Of a stretch of 64,000 nucleotides of DNA, positions 1,900 to 41,775 are shown piece after piece. A program made the translations under genes and the position numbers. The stretch is taken from the IMG/VR virus record IMGVR_UViG_3300017780_006957, positions 46,277-110,276 of that record. One strand, written 5' to 3'. The notes under the pieces are model-generated. The model was given only the letters and a program-made list of their open reading frames with translations, made no database searches and had not been told where the DNA came from. The first letter of the stretch is position 1, and the number at the start of each line of letters is the position of its first letter. The DNA is from a virus.

Positions 1900-1942
1900 A
1901 TAATTATTTACACAATCGAACTAACTTTATGAATTAAAAAAA

Positions 1943-2016
1943 TGGTGCGTTATGTGGTAGTCGAAACCACGCTACTAGAGTGGAAGTCTAGTGTGCTACC
2001 GTAACACTTATAACGC
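1943..2016 (-). tRNA. tRNA-Gly(UCC)
   Basis: GCGTTAT/ATAACGC acceptor, CTAGA-CTTCCAC-TCTAG anticodon arm, TTCGACT T-loop, CCA. Confidence 0.92.
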
Positions 2017-2021
2017 AAAAT

Positions 2022-2093
2022 TGGTGGAGCATTTCGGAACTGCCCCGAAGTCCGCAATGCATATAGCATTACGTCGAAATCTATATATGCCCC
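2022..2093 (-). ncRNA. minimal tmRNA-like RNA (tRNA-like domain only)
   Basis: GGGGCAT/ATGCTCC-A-CCA with G3-U70, stemless D-loop GATTTCGAC, 7-bp hairpin, GGAC, T-arm TTCGG-GGCAGTT-CCGAA. Confidence 0.8.
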
Positions 2094-2576
2094 TTAACTT
2101 TCTTTATTAAACATTACATAATTATGAACAGAAACAACATAATCTTCTGCTACAGCAAGTTTACCCTGCATCCATGTTTCTGTCAAGTTATCTTGCACTT
2201 TTAAATCATCTAAAGCTGCCAAAATGTTTTCGGCGTGAGATTTGATTGAAGCAATAGATCCAATAGCCATTTCATAAAGATCTTTCTTGTATTCGGTCAA
2301 CTCCTCTTCTGGACTTTCATCTTCCATTTCTGGAGCATTAAAATCCACTTCTTCAGCCTTGCTAACTTTTTTAAGTGGTTCTGCAAAATCAAGAAATTCA
2401 TCATCGCCAGATCCGACGACAACATCAGCAGAAGCTTTGGCTTGATCGAATTGAGTATAACAGATTGCAATGCGCTGTTGATTGTCTTTGAACTTAGGGT
2501 CTTTGGCTACTTCAGAGATGCAGCGGCCCACAAAATCCTTTTTCTTTTCTTTTTTCTCAGGAGTTGGTAAAGGCAT
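2094..2576 (-). CDS. hypothetical, probably virion-associated
   Basis: MPLPTP..E.KKDFVGRC...QRIAICY N-terminal motif; GTGTAA at 2597-2602. Confidence 0.7.
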   Translation of the reverse strand: MPLPTPEKKEKKKDFVGRCISEVAKDPKFKDNQQRIAICYTQFDQAKASADVVVGSGDDEFLDFAEPLKKVSKAEEVDFNAPEMEDESPEEELTEYKKDLYEMAIGSIASIKSHAENILAALDDLKVQDNLTETWMQGKLAVAEDYVVSVHNYVMFNKES

Positions 2577-2604
2577 AATTTTATATTTAAAATATATTAC
2601 ACTT

Positions 2605-2850
2605 TTAATGCATGAAGTTAATAATTTTCTGAACAGCGACTTCAATGTCCGTTGCGTCTCTTATGATTTTATCTTCAGACCAACTATGGGCCGCATTATA
2701 TGAGTGATTTTTCATCAATTTATTTGTTTTTAAATCTACCCAATGGAAAGACTGCCAATCGACAAGATCTTTTAGGTTTTTTATGGTGATTCTCTGTTCT
2801 TCATATTTGTTGATTTCGATTTCAATAGTAGATGTTCCTTTGATTTTCAT
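2605..2850 (-). CDS. hypothetical protein
   Basis: 81 aa ORF. Confidence 0.6.
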   Translation of the reverse strand: MKIKGTSTIEIEINKYEEQRITIKNLKDLVDWQSFHWVDLKTNKLMKNHSYNAAHSWSEDKIIRDATDIEVAVQKIINFMH

Positions 2851-2863
2851 AATAAGAAAGGCA

Positions 2864-2951
2864 AGGACAGTGCGAGATTCGAACTCGCGGTGAGCTTAAC
2901 GCCCACTTCAGTTTTCAAGACTGACGTATTAATCCACTCTACCAACTGTCC
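2864..2951 (-). tRNA. tRNA-Ser(UGA)
   Basis: GGACAGT/ACTGTCC acceptor, TCAGT-CTTGAAA-ACTGA, long variable arm, TTCGAAT; no CCA. Confidence 0.92.
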
Positions 2952-2957
2952 GTTTAA

Positions 2958-3083
2958 TTATCCTTGGCCGCGATACTTTTTTCTATAATTTTTTGAATTC
3001 TTTAGATGAGAGGTCTTGCTTTTAGCATGGATTCCCTTGCGCTTCTTAGACTTTACACCGTTTTTTTGGTTCTTCTTGTTCAT
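2958..3083 (-). CDS. 41-aa basic protein ending KKYRGQG
   Basis: Manual translation MNKKNQKNGVKSKKRKGIHAKSKTSHLKNSKNYRKKYRGQG; abuts tilS stop. Confidence 0.7.
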   Translation of the reverse strand: MNKKNQKNGVKSKKRKGIHAKSKTSHLKNSKNYRKKYRGQG

Positions 3084-3704
3084 TTATTTATTGTTTAGAT
3101 AGAATTTTTTTAGCACTACTTTATTTAAGCCTCTACGACTTTCGATTTCAGGAATGATTGTTTTACGAATCCAATTTCTTTCATACCTTTGATCTTCGTT
3201 GCTCTCATCAATTTGAAGATACTTGAAAAGATTGTTTTTGTCAACCCAATTTTCAAAATTCTTTTTAATGTTCAAGATGAATGGGCGATAGATAGAAAAA
3301 GAATTAAAATCAGTAAATTCTTGAATTGGTTTGTGTTCTGGGCAACCTTTTAAAGTATTACTTATATAACTCTCTACAGCGTCTTGTAAATGCTGGCATT
3401 GAATAATTGACCCACCCACTTGAGAAAAGAATTTTAATCTTTCTTTCCTTAGTCCATCTTCAATATTTTTATCAATCTTAATAGAACATTTTTCTGTGAT
3501 AAGATTAATTTTATAGTCAGAACAAAATCTTTCGCAAGCCTTTTGCATAAGGTTGTTTTGCGGTCTTTGATTATGATTATAGTGAATAGCTTGAAATTTT
3601 TGTCCAGATTTATGAAGAAAATGAGCGCAAGCTAGACTATCTATACCGCCAGAGATAGCAATACTATAAGTTTTTGGTAGGTATTTTTTATTTATTTTGA
3701 TCAT
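3084..3704 (-). CDS. tilS: tRNA(Ile)-lysidine synthase, catalytic domain only
   Basis: PP-loop SGGIDS, HYNH, H.QD.VE, YRPF, DESN...RNWIR. Confidence 0.88.
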   Translation of the reverse strand: MIKINKKYLPKTYSIAISGGIDSLACAHFLHKSGQKFQAIHYNHNQRPQNNLMQKACERFCSDYKINLITEKCSIKIDKNIEDGLRKERLKFFSQVGGSIIQCQHLQDAVESYISNTLKGCPEHKPIQEFTDFNSFSIYRPFILNIKKNFENWVDKNNLFKYLQIDESNEDQRYERNWIRKTIIPEIESRRGLNKVVLKKFYLNNK

Positions 3705-3752
3705 TTAATTAAAAGATTATGATATTTATCATAATCAGTGTATAATAGTTAT

Positions 3753-4112
3753 ATGCAAAAATGTAATCATTGTCAAGCGAATTTATCTGGTAATCAAACT
3801 AAATGGTGTTCGGATAAATGCAAACATTCTGTCGCAAATGCGAAACATCAAAATTATCAAGCTCAACAGGAAAGAGGCAAGTCTAGAAAAAGAGATTTAA
3901 TTAAAATGAAAGGCGGCGGATGTGAAATTTGTGGTTATAAAAAATCTACAGCCGCTCTATGTTTCCATCATTTAGACCCTTCAATAAAAAAATTTGAATT
4001 AGATATAAGAAGCTTATCAAATAGAAGACTAGATTATATCTTGGATGAAGCCTCAAAATGTCAATTACTTTGCTCTAATTGTCATATGGAAGTTCATCAT
4101 GGTTTAGTATAA
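3753..4112 (+). CDS. HNH endonuclease
   Basis: CEICGY..ALCFHH.DP..K...KCQLLCSNCHMEVH; GTGTAT upstream. Confidence 0.85.
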   Translation: MQKCNHCQANLSGNQTKWCSDKCKHSVANAKHQNYQAQQERGKSRKRDLIKMKGGGCEICGYKKSTAALCFHHLDPSIKKFELDIRSLSNRRLDYILDEASKCQLLCSNCHMEVHHGLV

Positions 4113-4120
4113 AATTAAAG

Positions 4121-4210
4121 TACAAAAGGTGAGACTCGAACTCACAAAGGACTTTCACGTCCATAACGGTTTATGAAACCGCGCCCTTAACCAATTCGGG
4201 TCACTTTTGC
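4121..4210 (-). tRNA. tRNA with CAU anticodon (Ile2/Met) and long variable arm
   Basis: GCAAAAG/CTTTTGT-A, GCGGT-TTCATAA-ACCGT, variable arm GGAC-GTGAAA-GTCC, GTGAG-TTCGAGT-CTCAC. Confidence 0.85.
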
Positions 4211-4223
4211 ATTATTTAGAAAG

Positions 4224-4301
4224 TGGTAGTCACGGTGGAATTCGAATCCACACTGTAATGATTTTAAGTCATTTGTCTCCTACCAGTTGGACTACGTGAC
4301 C
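4224..4301 (-). tRNA. tRNA-Leu(UAA), short variable loop
   Basis: GGTCACG/CGTGACT-A-CCA, AATGA-CTTAAAA-TCATT. Confidence 0.9.
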
Positions 4302-5962: not shown

Positions 5963-5993
5963 TTTATATCTTATTATATAAGAATAAGAAAGT

Positions 5994-6162
5994 TTTTCTA
6001 TCGCTGAAGAAGTCCCCCGTTTCCACAGAGGTCAATGACCCTTCTTCACTTTTCTACAAGTACTAACTCGCTGGAGAGTTTGACCACGCGATGCGTAGCT
6101 ACACTCATTTTCCTGTCCGTTTTCTCTGAATACTTCGGGCGATCAAAACGCACGATAGAAAA
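5994..6162 (-). ncRNA. unknown structured RNA module R9
   Basis: 10-bp terminal stem TTTTCTATCG/CGATAGAAAA; internal TGAAGAAG/CTTCTTCA and GGAA-capped hairpin. Confidence 0.65.
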
Positions 6163-6166
6163 TTGA

Positions 6167-6228
6167 CCAATTCCTGACCTGCCGCGCACTACTTTATCAG
6201 GTATAGCCGCTTGCAGTCAGGCAATTGG
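6167..6228 (-). ncRNA. unknown hairpin RNA module R8
   Basis: CCAATT-g-CCTGAC-TGC...GCA-g-GTCAGG-AATTGG. Confidence 0.6.
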
Positions 6229-6234
6229 AAATGG

Positions 6235-6401
6235 TTTTGCGGCTCAGGTCGCTATATCGTGCAATGTGTTCCCAACCGAATAATCGTCTCGAAAGACTCG
6301 ATTTCTATCAACTGCATTAACCCATCACTGAATCGTGCGTTTTATGTTGACTACCTTGCACAAACGTCTTAGTTGACGAATACCCCTCAATGACCGCAAA
6401 A
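6235..6401 (-). ncRNA. unknown structured RNA module R7
   Basis: TTTTGCGG-TCA/TGA-g-CCGCAAAA terminal stem; GTCT-TTCG-AGAC hairpin. Confidence 0.65.
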
Positions 6402-6405
6402 TTAG

Positions 6406-6562
6406 TTTATCTGTCAGACCTTAACGCCTATGCCCCTCGCGCATAGACAGCATCTTCGCTGGTTCACGGATGGGCCACTTTGTAGTGCCGTAAGTGCAGC
6501 ACCTCAGACGGATCTCCAGCATAGGTCTTCACAGCTGTGTGTAGATATTCTCGACAGATAAA
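6406..6562 (-). ncRNA. unknown structured RNA module R6
   Basis: 10-bp terminal stem TTTATCTGTC/GACAGATAAA; GTCTATGC/GCATAGGC and CAGC/GCTG hairpins. Confidence 0.65.
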
Positions 6563-6565
6563 AAA

Positions 6566-6679
6566 TGCAGAAGAGATTGGATTCGAACCAATATTGTACC
6601 ATACTGCCCTTGGGCATCCAAGGAATCGAACCTTAACGAAATAACCGTCGCTATTGCATTGCCGTTATGCTACTCTTCT
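6566..6679 (-). ncRNA. tRNA-like RNA R5 with anticodon arm replaced and two T-arms
   Basis: AGAAGAG/CTCTTCT acceptor, GCAT/ATGC D-arm, ATTGG-TTCGAAT-CCAAT plus internal AAGG-TTCGATT-CCTT. Confidence 0.7.
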
Positions 6680-6685
6680 AAAAAA

Positions 6686-6760
6686 GGTGGCTAGAGTGTT
6701 TGTGGAATCTCAGGAATTGCATCCTGTTATACTAGTAACTTGCCAGATTCCCTCTAGCCA
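6686..6760 (-). ncRNA. tRNA-like RNA module R4
   Basis: GGCTAGAG/CTCTAGCC-A-CC, GAATCT/AGATTC, CAGGA-TGCAAT-TCCTG. Confidence 0.6.
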
Positions 6761-6772
6761 TTGAAAATTTGT

Positions 6773-6866
6773 CCATAGAGTATGCACTCTCAATGCGTTA
6801 TGCAGGACTGGCACTAGCTATATGAATCCTTATAGCTGGAGAAGGAAGCCCGTAACCTTCATATGG
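6773..6866 (-). ncRNA. unknown multibranch RNA module R3
   Basis: CCATA/TATGG closing stem; GAAGG/CCTTC, AGCTATA/TATAGCT, AGAGT/ACTCT hairpins. Confidence 0.55.
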
Positions 6867-6875
6867 CTTTTTATA

Positions 6876-6960
6876 TTTACAATGTATGGTTATTAACCCA
6901 CACGGAATTTCAAGCATTAACCCACTACGTATATGGTAACTCACCGATTTCCATTGCAAA
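6876..6960 (-). ncRNA. unknown RNA module R2
   Basis: TTTGCAATG/CATTGTAAA terminal stem; two TGGGTTAAT copies. Confidence 0.5.
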
Positions 6961-6967
6961 AATTAAT

Positions 6968-7080
6968 ATTCCTTTAATGGTAGGCGTTGTCGCATTCAAA
7001 TCTCTACCCACCACAATCGCTTCAAGATTCTCGTTCGCTTACCGCACGGGGCATGAAGCCCCTTGTCCCATTAAGGGAAT
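6968..7080 (-). ncRNA. unknown structured RNA module R1
   Basis: ATTCCCTTAATGG/CCATTAAAGGAAT terminal stem (12 of 13 pair); GGGGC-TTCAT-GCCCC. Confidence 0.65.
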
Positions 7081-7103
7081 AAAATTTTTAAAATTTTTAT
7101 TTA

Positions 7104-7113
7104 TTAAAGAACA
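7104..7113 (-). promoter_or_regulatory. boxA antitermination element
   Basis: TGTTCTTTAA downstream of hairpin 7122-7142, as in rrn leaders. Confidence 0.7.
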
Positions 7114-7187
7114 GTATTTTATCTCTAATCGTTGACTAGAGAGGATCTTTCGAATCTGAGTGACTCCTATTCAATCGATCTATTTAG

Positions 7188-7216
7188 ATAATAACTTATG
7201 TTTTCGCTTATGTCAA
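7188..7216 (-). promoter_or_regulatory. sigma70 promoter of RNA operon
   Basis: TTGACA-17-TATTAT. Confidence 0.8.
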
Positions 7217-7580: not shown

Positions 7581-8144
7581 TTATATAAAACTTTTCCACT
7601 CTTTTCTAATTTTGGACACCTGAAGAAAAAGATTAGGAATTACTGGAGCTTTTACTATTTCATTTTTAATATTAAAAAATGGAGAATGATCGGACTTCTT
7701 TTGATTGCAGTCAAGACAAGCCAAAGTCCTATTTTCGTGTTCATCAGTTCCGCCCTTACTTTTTGGTTTGATGTGATCAATAGTAAGATCTGCGATTTTA
7801 AATTTCTTTAAACAATACTGGCAAATAGAATCATGAATTCTGCTTAATTCCGCCAAAGATAGTTTTTTCTTTTTGGGTTTTTTAAAAAATTTACTGGTTA
7901 CAATAATAATTGTTGGAATTGGCCAAGAGCGTTTTGCGCTACGAAGAACGGGCTGATCTTCATGGAACTCCGCATAATCATTCCACTTCTCTATAGAATC
8001 AAACAAATTATTGTTTTTATCTAAAGCGGTGACATTTTGACTTAATAGATGCGCGAAAGCAGCCTTTGCTGTGATGGCAGTGATAGGTTGCCAAGCGTTA
8101 TTAAGTAAGAGTGTGGTTCTAGTATTGCAATCTACGATGTTCAT
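7581..8144 (-). CDS. HNH endonuclease (McrA-like)
   Basis: TLLLN..WQP, CQYC, TIDHIKPKSKGG...N...AC..CNQKK. Confidence 0.88.
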   Translation of the reverse strand: MNIVDCNTRTTLLLNNAWQPITAITAKAAFAHLLSQNVTALDKNNNLFDSIEKWNDYAEFHEDQPVLRSAKRSWPIPTIIIVTSKFFKKPKKKKLSLAELSRIHDSICQYCLKKFKIADLTIDHIKPKSKGGTDEHENRTLACLDCNQKKSDHSPFFNIKNEIVKAPVIPNLFLQVSKIRKEWKSFI

Positions 8145-34542: not shown

Positions 34543-36969
34543 TTAACCGATATTAATTGAGTTGTCAATGATTTTTACTGAGATTTGTGATTTTTTTGAA
34601 TTTTGAATAATAAACTTCGAAATTGGCACTTGCAGTTTGTTGCGAACAAAATCTTTAATGCTTCTGGCGTGAAGTTTTTCTTTTTTTAATGAATTTAAAA
34701 TGAATTCCGAGATGGCTTTATTAAAAGTCATTTTAATATTTTGTTGTTTGAGTTTATTTTGAATAGTTGAAATTTCAAAATTAATGATTGATTCGAATTC
34801 TTTATCTCCAAGTTCATTAAAAACTAAAATATTATTAAGTCTTGCGACAAATTCTGGTTTCAAATATTTTTTTACTGAATCTTTGTATATTTCTTGAGCT
34901 GGGGGCGAGTCATTAATAAAACCCATCGATACAGCTTCTTTTTTATCATGCCCAATATTACTAGTCAGGATGACGATTGATTTGGCGAATGATATTTTAT
35001 TATTTAAATTATCATTGACATATCCTTCATCTAATAAATGAAGCAATAGATTGAGAATCTCAGGATCACATTTCTCTACCTCATCGAAGAGAACCACGCA
35101 ATTGGGGTTGTTCCTTACAAATTCGGTTAAAAGCCCTCCTTGGTCAAATCCTACATAGCCAGCATTAGCGCCAATCAATTTACTGATGCCAGTTTTCTCT
35201 TGGTACTCGCTCATATTGATTTGGATAAATGCTTTTTCATTACCATAAAAATGTTTGGCGATTTTTTTGGCTGTATAGGTTTTGCCTACACTGGTTGGGC
35301 CAACAAAAAATAAACTAGCTAATGGTTTGTCGTTATCATTAAGCCCGACTTTGGCGCAAGACAAAATATCAGTAATCTCTTCAATGTTTTTGGATTGACC
35401 AAAAACCTCTTTTTCTATATTGTTTTGAAAATTAGAAAATTCATTATTATTAACCGCAATTGAGCCTTCTGATAAACCAGTTTTTTCCGAAATAACTTTA
35501 ATAACATCTGATAATTTAATTTTAAACCTTTTATTCTTAATTGTCTCATTAAATTCTCCAACACACAAAACATACTGCATTAAAAGATCTTCACAATATG
35601 CCTGTTCATCTATATCTTGATCTACTTTAACATCATTTAATTTTTCGATTAGATATTTTTGCAAGTTTTTAATATCTTCTGGAAGTTGAAGGTTTTTAAT
35701 TTTAACTTTAGCGCCAACTAAATCCATAATATCAAAGGCTTTATCTGGGAAGTTTTTATGAGGAATATATTTCTCACAAAGATTGACGATTGTATCGATA
35801 ATTTGTGGAGTATAGCTTACATGGTGGAAGTCTTCATAATCGCTCACGCAATTTTTAATAATTTCCATAGTCTGTTCTTTGGGCGGTGCTTCGATTTTTA
35901 CGGGATCAAATCTCCTTTTCATTGCCCCGTCTTTTTCAAAATATTTTTTATATTCTGCGTTGGTGGTCGCGCCAATACATTTAAAATTGCCTCTAGCTAA
36001 TGCTGGTTTTAAAATATTTGCTGCATCCAAAGAACCCTCTGAACTGCCAGTTCCTACAATATTGTGAATTTCATCAAAAAATAAAATAATATTTTCTTTT
36101 TCAGAAGCAGCCTCAATTAATTGTTTTAATTTTTCTTCGAAATCTCCCCTATAGCGAGTGCCAGCGACCATAGATGCCAAATCTACGCTATAAATACGAA
36201 GATCGAGTAAATTCGATGGGACATCTTGAGAGATAATTCTTTGGGCTAACCCTTCAACAATCGCAGTCTTGCCAACCCCGCCTTCACCAATTAAAATTGC
36301 GTTACTTTTTATTTTTTTAGAAAGGATTTCGATGACTTCATTAATTTCTTTATCGCGTCCAGAGATAAAATTAAATTTACCGTCGATAGCCTCTTGATTT
36401 AAGAATGAACAATATAATTCTAAAGATTTATTTTTTTTCTTTTCACTAAATTTTGTTTGAGTAGTTTTTTCTTCTGTTGATTTTTCTGAAGTTTCGACTG
36501 GAGTATTTGAGAACGACTCTATGTGTTCTTTGACAACTTGTTTTAAACTATCAATATCAATTTTTTTAAATTTTAAAAATTCACATAAATTTTTTGAGTT
36601 TTCTAAAATAGAATAAAAAATATGTTCAATTCCAATATAATCATGCTCGTAAACTTCAGATAGTTTTTGAGCGTACGAGATCGTTTCTGCCGTTTCTTCG
36701 TGCCATGATTCAACAGAAAAATCGCTAATAAAATCTTTTGGATATTTTTTGAAATAACTCGACATTAAATGTTCACAATTAATTAGGGAAACATCAATAT
36801 CATTAATTTCCAACATCATTGTTAAATCTTCAGATAGATTTTTAAAACAACCATAATATAGGTGGGTGTTATTGATTATATTGTGAGCATTTTCAACGGC
36901 AAATTCTTTTGCGTGTTTATAGGCTTTTTTTGCTCTTGGTGTCAAATTAAAATTATTGATTGCCATCAT
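34543..36969 (-). CDS. ClpA/ClpC-like AAA+ chaperone
   Basis: Clp_N repeats, [40 protein letters not shown]. Confidence 0.93.
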
Positions 36970-41004: not shown

Positions 41005-41775
41005 ATGAAAAGATTTTCACAAGAAGAAAAAATATGGATTAAAGACAACTACAAGCACAAATCAATTAATGAAATGTGTTCTTTCTTAGAAAGAACCGAA
41101 GCTTCTGTAAAAGGATTTCTAAATAAAAATAAATTAAAAAATAGCTTTGATTATTCTAGACCTAATAATATTGGATTAGAAAATGAAAAATTATGTTATC
41201 TTTTGGGATTTATTTGGGCAGATGGCTATATTAGTGAAAAAGGATATATAGAATTAACTATTTTAAATTCAGATGGACAACAAATATTACCCGTAATCCA
41301 ATATATTGAAGGATTTAAAATTAGATTAAATAATAGAAAAAATAAAAAAACTACTATATCTTTTATATCTAGAAATAAAGATTTTGTTTCTATGTTATTG
41401 AATTTAAAATTTAATAACAAAAGTTATTGCGAACCAACTGAACTTTTACAGATTATGCCAAAAAATAATCATTATCTTTTTTGGAGAGGTTTATTCGATG
41501 GTGATGGTTGTATTTATGATCAAAAGACTTCAGCTACAAAAGTATCAAAAAGAATAGAAATTTCAGGTCAATATGATTATCAATGGACAGAGCTTTCTAA
41601 ATTATTAGAAAATCTTAATTGTTCTTTTTGTATAAAAAAGTCAGATACTCTTTATGGAAAAAATTCTTTGATTAAGATTTGGAGAAAGGCTGATGTCATA
41701 AAATTTAGTGAATATATTTACGCCGACGGAGGAATTAATGGGTGCTTAACTAGAAAAAAAATTAAGTTTTATTGA
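41005..41775 (+). CDS. LAGLIDADG homing endonuclease
   Basis: YLLGFIWADG and FWRGLFDGDG; opposite strand to flanking operon; GTGTAA upstream. Confidence 0.9.
   Translation: MKRFSQEEKIWIKDNYKHKSINEMCSFLERTEASVKGFLNKNKLKNSFDYSRPNNIGLENEKLCYLLGFIWADGYISEKGYIELTILNSDGQQILPVIQYIEGFKIRLNNRKNKKTTISFISRNKDFVSMLLNLKFNNKSYCEPTELLQIMPKNNHYLFWRGLFDGDGCIYDQKTSATKVSKRIEISGQYDYQWTELSKLLENLNCSFCIKKSDTLYGKNSLIKIWRKADVIKFSEYIYADGGINGCLTRKKIKFY

Follow-up and report, generated by a model that had tools for sequence, protein, structure and literature searches.

The stretch of viral DNA analysed here (hereafter the window; 64,000 nucleotides of IMG/VR record IMGVR_UViG_3300017780_006957) carries on its minus strand a cluster of tRNA genes between 1943 and 5962, and inside this cluster lies a 72-nt RNA gene, the element, whose parts and immediate neighbours are listed in Table 1. 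ARAGORN calls six tRNAs in the window, the element not among them, and Rfam at gathering thresholds returns tRNAs only. Phage genes in the window encode a virion protein (phrog_1645), HNH endonucleases, thymidylate synthase and a Mom-like protein, along with a DNA polymerase, a DnaB-like helicase, ribonucleotide reductase and tail proteins. Compared with proteins from Synechococcus myophages and from an uncultured freshwater virus, the virion protein shows 46-52% identity. The window DNA or close relatives of it are found in freshwater and lake metagenomes of about 20 studies, and near-identical contigs are present in three DNA runs compared with the window. CheckV completeness of two related fragments puts the genome at roughly 120-200 kb, of which the window covers 64 kb.

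Table 1. The 72-nt element, its parts and the adjoining genes (coordinates in the window; positions numbered along the RNA).
Feature	Coordinates	Strand	Basis and remarks
TLD-only (tag-less) tmRNA-like RNA gene, 72 nt, CCA encoded	2022..2093	-	sequence, fold, covariation, model R1
Acceptor stem, 5' strand GGGGCAU, positions 1-7	2087..2093	-	pairs with 2026-2032; G3·U invariant; 5:64 is C-G or U-A among variants
Stemless D-loop AUAUAGAUUUCGA, positions 8-20	2074..2086	-	unpaired in fold; five variants alike except one column
8-bp hairpin with 5-nt loop, positions 21-41, in the place of tmRNA helix 2a	2053..2073	-	fold; two pairs change on both sides
GGAC linker, positions 41-44 (G41 also closes the hairpin)	2050..2053	-	invariant; aligned to GGAC of the alpha_tmRNA and tmRNA_permuted consensus
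T-arm UUCGG-GGCAGUU-CCGAA, positions 45-61, alpha-tmRNA-type T-loop	2033..2049	-	stem invariant, loop varies at three columns
Acceptor stem, 3' strand AUGCUCC, with discriminator A and CCA, positions 62-72	2022..2032	-	sequence, fold, alignment
tRNA-Gly(UCC)	1943..2016	-	ARAGORN; Rfam 58.9 bits; 5 nt downstream of the element
Upstream ORF, 183 aa as listed, acidic, without family	2094..2645	-	not SmpB; TAA stop abuts G1 of the RNA

Anatomy and setting of the element

Read along the minus strand from 2093 to 2022, the RNA runs GGGGCAU / AUAUAGAUUUCGAC / GUAAUGC-UAUAU-GCAUUGC / GGAC / UUCGG-GGCAGUU-CCGAA / AUGCUCC-A-CCA. Its minimum free energy (MFE) fold, at -26.3 kcal/mol (z = -3.28; 0 of 200 shuffled sequences fold as well), consists of a 7-bp acceptor stem, 13 unpaired D-loop bases, a hairpin, a three-base linker, a T-arm and ACCA. 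A U stands opposite G3, at tRNA position 70, the discriminator is an A, and the CCA end is encoded in the DNA. The D-loop ends in GAUUUCGAC, in agreement with the UUCGAC consensus of the Rfam tmRNA models; the T-loop, 7 nt long, is non-canonical, reading GGCAGUU and not UUCRANY. Sequence and MFE fold reproduce the acceptor with G3-U70, stemless D-loop, GGAC, T-arm and A-CCA that an initial annotation, made from the letters alone, had picked out; its hairpin of 7 bp with a 5-nt loop was right as to the loop, but pair C21-G41, present in the MFE fold, lengthens the stem to 8 bp. Only 19 nt separate GAC from GGAC, with no resume codon, tag frame, stop or pseudoknots among them, and the 5-nt hairpin loop leaves no space for a tag reading frame, so that such a mini-TLD, a tmRNA cut down to its tRNA-like domain (TLD), cannot resume translation.

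The tRNA-Gly gene follows the element directly in four of the five distinct variants described below, and element and tRNA-Gly(UCC) are probably co-transcribed. Our scan found no terminator between the two, and promoter-like matches (29, against 23.4 expected from shuffled sequence) were near background. In metatranscriptome run X24 a contig spans 1937-2112 and includes the element; contigs from RNA libraries may stem from DNA carry-over, however, so that this one is no proof of transcription. A contig from the same run joins 2112 to 2596, skipping 483 nt (2113-2595) that make up most of the upstream ORF, which indicates a related strain that is without most of this ORF and has retained the mini-tmRNA and its flanking tRNAs. 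The likely start of the ORF is the Met at residue 24, and the ORF is kept upstream of the element in four related contigs (L003, L055, L056 and L059), with an insertion in the L055 and L056 copies.

Several other features of this region are unusual in their own right. A PP-loop ATPase of the TilS/lysidine-synthase type is encoded at 3084-3704 (minus strand; PF01171, 106 bits), and L003 and L055 have the protein at 99% identity. About 400 nt away is a tRNA (4120-4210, minus strand) whose anticodon is CAU and whose variable arm is unusually long; the two may represent a phage tRNA-Ile2 supplied with its own modifying enzyme. Long variable arms recur in several tRNAs of this phage (see 5768-5854 and 2864-2951, minus strand), and tRNA-Thr(UGU) has an extra variable-region hairpin of 11-13 nt, a type-II-like feature that is unusual for a Thr tRNA. 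About 1.2 kb on the minus strand (5963-7216), upstream of tRNA-Asn and tRNA-Thr, lack a credible ORF, are apparently GC-richer and rich in RNA, and are conserved in patches in a related contig (G002). A 112-nt tRNA-like RNA at 6568-6679 (minus strand), uncalled by ARAGORN although it scores 40.4 bits with the Rfam tRNA model, has in the place of its anticodon arm an insertion of ~40-60 nt with a second T-arm-like hairpin. Two HNH endonuclease genes and a LAGLIDADG endonuclease gene (1243-1899 and 7581-8144, minus strand; 41005-41775, plus strand) are also present, the first HNH gene immediately downstream of tRNA-Gly.

Conservation and class membership

Pattern scans of IMG/VR and JGI metagenomes recovered four further distinct variants of the 72-nt RNA, all on related freshwater phage contigs (L003, identical in L055 and L056; L052; L054; L059). 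All 20 pairs are standard in all five distinct variants, and three of them change on both sides, namely 5:64 (C-G to U-A or the reverse) and two pairs in the hairpin; when partners are slid as a control, pairing falls to 37-58%. The hairpin of L059 is shorter by 2 nt and the T-loop of L003 reads GGCGGCU. In contrast to the drifting stems, G3·U70 and ACCA never change, and a single column varies across the unpaired D-loop and GGAC, which means that the loops are more tightly constrained in sequence than the stems, as expected from sequence-specific recognition rather than from a mere hairpin. The L003 contig is 89% identical to 1938-4227 of the window, so the locus is orthologous. It follows that relatives carry the same mini form, which rules out a case that the initial annotation had named as one that would undo it, a one-off deletion in a lineage whose other members possess a full tmRNA.

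To which class does the RNA belong? Scoring against Rfam, a check proposed at the outset, gave partial matches. The 3' half (CGGAC, T-arm, CUCCACCA) aligns to alpha_tmRNA (RF01849; 23 bits, E 1e-5, gathering threshold 50), whose consensus T-loop GGCgGUA resembles the GGCAGUU of the element, and to tmRNA_permuted (RF04321; 27.8 bits, E 1e-4, gathering threshold 47), and the isolated element yields nothing at E <= 10 with RF00023 (gathering threshold 47 bits), mt-tmRNA or the tRNA model RF00005. We also built a covariance model, R1, from 16 other phage mini-TLD families in a common register, excluding both the family of the window and DS6A, the phage whose TLD-only gene is discussed below. R1 matches the element end to end at 53.3 bits (E 1.3e-9), its sole significant match in the 64 kb; the next best match in the window reaches 9.5 bits and the best true tRNA 26 bits, and the four relatives score 52-55 bits and the DS6A gene 61.6 bits. 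The RNA has neither a D-stem nor an anticodon arm, its loop in that region is only 5 nt, and it draws no ARAGORN call as a tRNA would. What it does have is what the DS6A-type class has: a closed 7-bp acceptor with G3·U70, the discriminator A and a CCA end, a stemless D-loop with UCGAC, a linker (GGAC here, GGAC or GCAC in the class) ahead of a 5-bp T-arm, and a helix 2 that ends in a short loop and encloses neither tag frame nor pseudoknots. The original reading of the locus as the tRNA-like domain of tmRNA, minus the mRNA-like domain, is borne out by the 3'-half alignments, by R1 and by the blank result with the tRNA model. Anatomy, conservation, covariation and class membership are observed for this element, and at the level of sequence they support its being a functional phage gene of the TLD-only tmRNA kind, compact and divergent, in a class that was already known.

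The only phage TLD-only tmRNA that we found described in the literature is that of DS6A, a gene characterised in a passage of PMC4131195 as "little more than the TLD"; we located it at JN698994.1: 28478-28560 by its Rfam tmRNA match (43.2 bits). Both RNAs are phage-encoded and made in one piece in standard 5'-to-3' order, with a closed acceptor carrying G3·U70, a stemless D-loop ending in UCGAC and a T-arm, and neither has a tag frame or pseudoknots. They differ in much else. The DS6A gene is 83 nt long, with a longer helix enclosing an inner CCGCACGCGG hairpin, whereas the element makes do with 72 nt and a plain 8-bp hairpin; DS6A has GCAC, a canonical T-loop (UUCGAUU) and no encoded CCA (CUA instead), whereas the element has GGAC, the alpha-type T-loop and an encoded CCA; and the 43.2 bits of DS6A on RF00023 contrast with no match for the element. 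DS6A is a temperate actinophage, the source of the element a large freshwater phage with the gene in a tRNA cluster.

Other known systems are further removed. The two-piece tmRNAs of Alphaproteobacteria and their phages (RF01849, RF04321) have the GGCRGU. T-loop and the 3' half in common with the element, but their gene is permuted, with the acceptor piece upstream of the coding piece; in the element the 5' and 3' halves are linked by the hairpin into one RNA, and what lies downstream is a bona fide tRNA-Gly. Judged by its sequence, the element is an alphaproteobacterial-type TLD in standard, non-permuted, one-piece order. With one-piece SsrA (RF00023) it shares TLD architecture and the motifs GGGG..UUCGAC, GGAC and CUCCACCA, and it is without about 300 nt that hold helices 2b-d, four pseudoknots and the tag reading frame. 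The CDS-less tmRNAs of jakobid mitochondria and Mallomonadaceae plastids likewise consist of the TLD only, at about 65-75 nt (PMC11915505), but they are organellar and operate with imported SmpB. The jakobid precedent invoked in the initial annotation is thus of the right, tag-less kind, although the mt-tmRNA model gives no match to the element at E <= 10 and the phage precedent, DS6A, had been missed. Searches of isolate phage genomes by blastn returned no match to the element, and a marine mini-TLD used as query found nothing in cyanophage and Caulobacter-phage records beyond generic 3' portions, namely T-arm and acceptor.

Mini-TLDs across viral genomes

With loci fetched earlier included, two structured IMG/VR scans, whose matches had to have a T-stem and an acceptor stem paired throughout, bring the census of mini-TLDs to at least 208 loci, with at least 135 different sequences, 62-92 nt long, that fall into at least 39 clusters at 75% identity; as the scan patterns force the signature motifs, this census is a biased lower bound. 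Among the matches listed, no locus is called a tRNA by ARAGORN, 4 of 207 overlap a full-tmRNA call and 22 of 207 adjoin tRNAs.

The matches listed also show how the two loops go together. Of 105 sequences with a canonical UUCRA T-loop, 89 have GG in the D-loop, and many UUUGA T-loops are paired with a D-loop GA, a combination consistent, as far as sequence goes, with a swap of G19-C56 for A19-U56. Alpha-type GGCRG T-loops mostly occur without GG (22 of 30), a rule that the RNA in the window follows. Across the at least 135 unique mini-TLDs the two loop types co-vary (Fisher p = 4e-9, keeping in mind that the sequences are not independent), which is what one would expect of a genuine tRNA-like elbow. 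CCA is encoded in 120 of 208 among the loci listed and is not encoded in 18 of 208, nor in L039-L044 (e.g. ..CUCCACGA); mini-TLDs of the latter sort would have to rely on the CCA-adding enzyme of the host.

DS6A-type minis (L062:28478-28560, and many of ~78-82 nt such as L162, L176 and L064:1362-1444) share an extra conserved module that is absent from the RNA in the window: helix 2a encloses UAAA/GAAA, a small CCGC-NNN-GCGG-like hairpin and A(A/G)C. One of these came from a scan of 185,579 species' genomes for the T-arm of the element, which returned a single further TLD-only gene (L064:1362-1444, minus strand). It is ~83 nt long, has an alpha-type T-loop (GGCAGAA) and sits on a 3-kb contig, probably phage or prophage DNA, that is binned with a Tissierellia MAG. 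The same 185,579 genomes held no full bacterial tmRNA with this T-arm, so that the Rfam alignment is the one source from which an alphaproteobacterial host can be read; with that in mind, the T-loop type suggests, on the strength of its sequence, tuning to such a host.

Proposed interference with trans-translation and alternative roles

What might a phage do with such an RNA? In tmRNA proper, the TLD is charged by AlaRS, binds EF-Tu as a tRNA does and has high affinity for SmpB, which takes the position of the anticodon arm that the TLD lacks (PMC8012679). If the mini-TLD followed suit, it would share a transcript with the tRNA genes next to it and be processed in the manner of a tRNA, with RNase P cutting at G1 and the 3' CCA already encoded; G3·U70, A73 and CCA would lead to charging by the alanyl-tRNA synthetase of the host; and the stemless D-loop (..UUCGAC), GGAC and T-arm would form the elbow that SmpB binds in real tmRNA. 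Host tmRNA would thus face a competitor for SmpB, and possibly also for EF-Tu and stalled ribosomes, with the outcome that host trans-translation and ssrA tagging would be shut down or blunted during infection. Arguing by analogy, we give slightly better than even odds (a probability of roughly 0.55) to this reading, in which the RNA matures like a tRNA, binds host SmpB, is probably alanylated, competes with host tmRNA and suppresses tagging; charging, SmpB binding, inhibitory effect and host are points that we infer.

The existing data on inhibition of tmRNA come from E. coli and a DS6A-type RNA, outside natural infection. A passage of PMC4131195 (Hudson et al. 2014), citing Mao et al. 2009 (RNA Biol 6:355), describes a DS6A-like molecule that strongly inhibits tmRNA in E. 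coli whether or not it can be charged, perhaps by titrating SmpB; inhibition of tmRNA by this type of RNA is likewise reported in a passage of PMC11915505, again citing Mao et al. 2009. An SmpB decoy and tag-less rescue, the two roles put forward in the initial annotation, are also those that the literature discusses for RNAs of this sort.

Tag-less rescue is the main rival, although we think it unlikely. Imagine that alanylated mini-TLD together with host SmpB enters a stalled ribosome and accepts the nascent chain, and that the peptide is then freed untagged, by ArfB, Pth or a second rescue event, with ribosomes set free during infection and phage proteins left unmarked for proteolysis. The determinants of charging and A-site entry are indeed intact and conserved (G3·U70, A73, encoded CCA, T-arm), transfer of the peptide to the TLD is a distinct step, taken before the tag frame comes into use (PMC8012679), and for the CDS-less tmRNAs of jakobids (mitochondria) and Mallomonadaceae (plastids) the presumed role is rescue that adds no tag (PMC11915505). 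However, after transfer the mini-TLD supplies no stop codon, and searches of the window with PHROGs and Pfam showed no release factor or hydrolase that might serve as partner. The published TLD-only RNA inhibits tmRNA regardless of charging, according to the passage in PMC4131195, and inhibition independent of charging argues for titration, not productive rescue.

Could the phage bring its own SmpB, or the missing half of a tmRNA? We found no SmpB by Pfam in 29 mid-size ORFs of the window, no rescue-related protein by PHROGs in 17 further ORFs, no tmRNA or coding piece in a permissive Rfam scan of the whole 64 kb, and nothing credible as a detached tag-coding half in two tag-peptide scans of the window, 5963-7216 included. 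The search for smpB or a coding piece suggested by the initial annotation has therefore come out negative for the 64 kb it covers, and since these are part of a genome of roughly 120-200 kb, either could lie elsewhere in it.

A quite different, and very improbable, role would be in RNA processing: the tRNA shape might do nothing in translation and simply mark the sites of RNase P cleavage and 3' trimming between the upstream ORF and tRNA-Gly. The layout invites this idea, with the TAA of the ORF abutting G1 and tRNA-Gly 5 nt further on, but a tRNA-Gly at that distance is already a processing site, and most census loci, all but the 22 of 207 among the matches listed, do not adjoin tRNAs. Moreover, punctuation needs the shape of acceptor and T-arm only, yet D-loop, GGAC, G3·U70 and ACCA are invariant while the stems drift.

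Phage tRNAs counter defences that target tRNAs, replacing or shielding host tRNAs that are cleaved, and the mini-TLD, sitting as it does among phage tRNAs and other tRNA-like RNAs, might by the same token shield tmRNA or tRNA-Ala by acting as decoy for a host defence nuclease or another factor aimed at them. We hold out little hope for this idea: no nuclease is known to target the TLD, nothing in the window links the element to a defence or counter-defence gene, and the features that are conserved are those recognised by SmpB and AlaRS.

Finally, ssrA is a frequent integration site of phages and genomic islands, which then carry the 3' part of the gene (PMC9004378), but a functionless decayed tRNA-Ala or ssrA attachment-site remnant is hardly credible and was rejected, as both acceptor halves are present and paired with compensatory changes in five variants that, at ~86% identity and with paired changes, are not one recent clone, the RNA has no tRNA-model match and no anticodon arm, and there is no integrase nearby in what is a large phage that itself encodes a DNA polymerase and enzymes of nucleotide metabolism.

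A gene elsewhere in the window is worth noting next to an RNA putatively aimed at the ssrA tagging pathway. It encodes an 808-aa ClpA/B/C-like double AAA+ unfoldase (34543-36969, minus strand; domains Clp_N, AAA, AAA_lid_9, AAA_2 and ClpB_D2-small) and belongs to phrog_4871, "ATP-dependent protease".

Returning to competition for SmpB as our preferred reading, trans-translation is nearly universal in bacteria and a drug target. The element extends the TLD-only design to a phage very different from DS6A, large, freshwater and probably with an alphaproteobacterial host, and does so in even more reduced form. Its points of interest are an alpha-type T-loop in a one-piece RNA, a minimal hairpin, the setting in a tRNA cluster and the evidence for a widespread, unannotated class; the element itself escapes both ARAGORN and Rfam at gathering thresholds. 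Taken with the at least 208 loci in IMG/VR, it suggests that interference with SmpB and tmRNA is a common phage strategy. Tentatively, and with the odds somewhat against us, we would go further and propose that one-piece, "de-permuted" alpha-type TLD-only RNAs belong as one branch to a phage RNA class that is large and has gone essentially unannotated (in IMG/VR, at least 135 unique sequences), that would take over SmpB-dependent rescue and that here, alongside other tRNA mimics and the ClpA/B/C-like unfoldase, would help to reshape the quality control of host translation. Either way, the mini-TLD offers a very small natural RNA with which to ask by what route, and to what benefit, phages disable or sidestep ribosome rescue.
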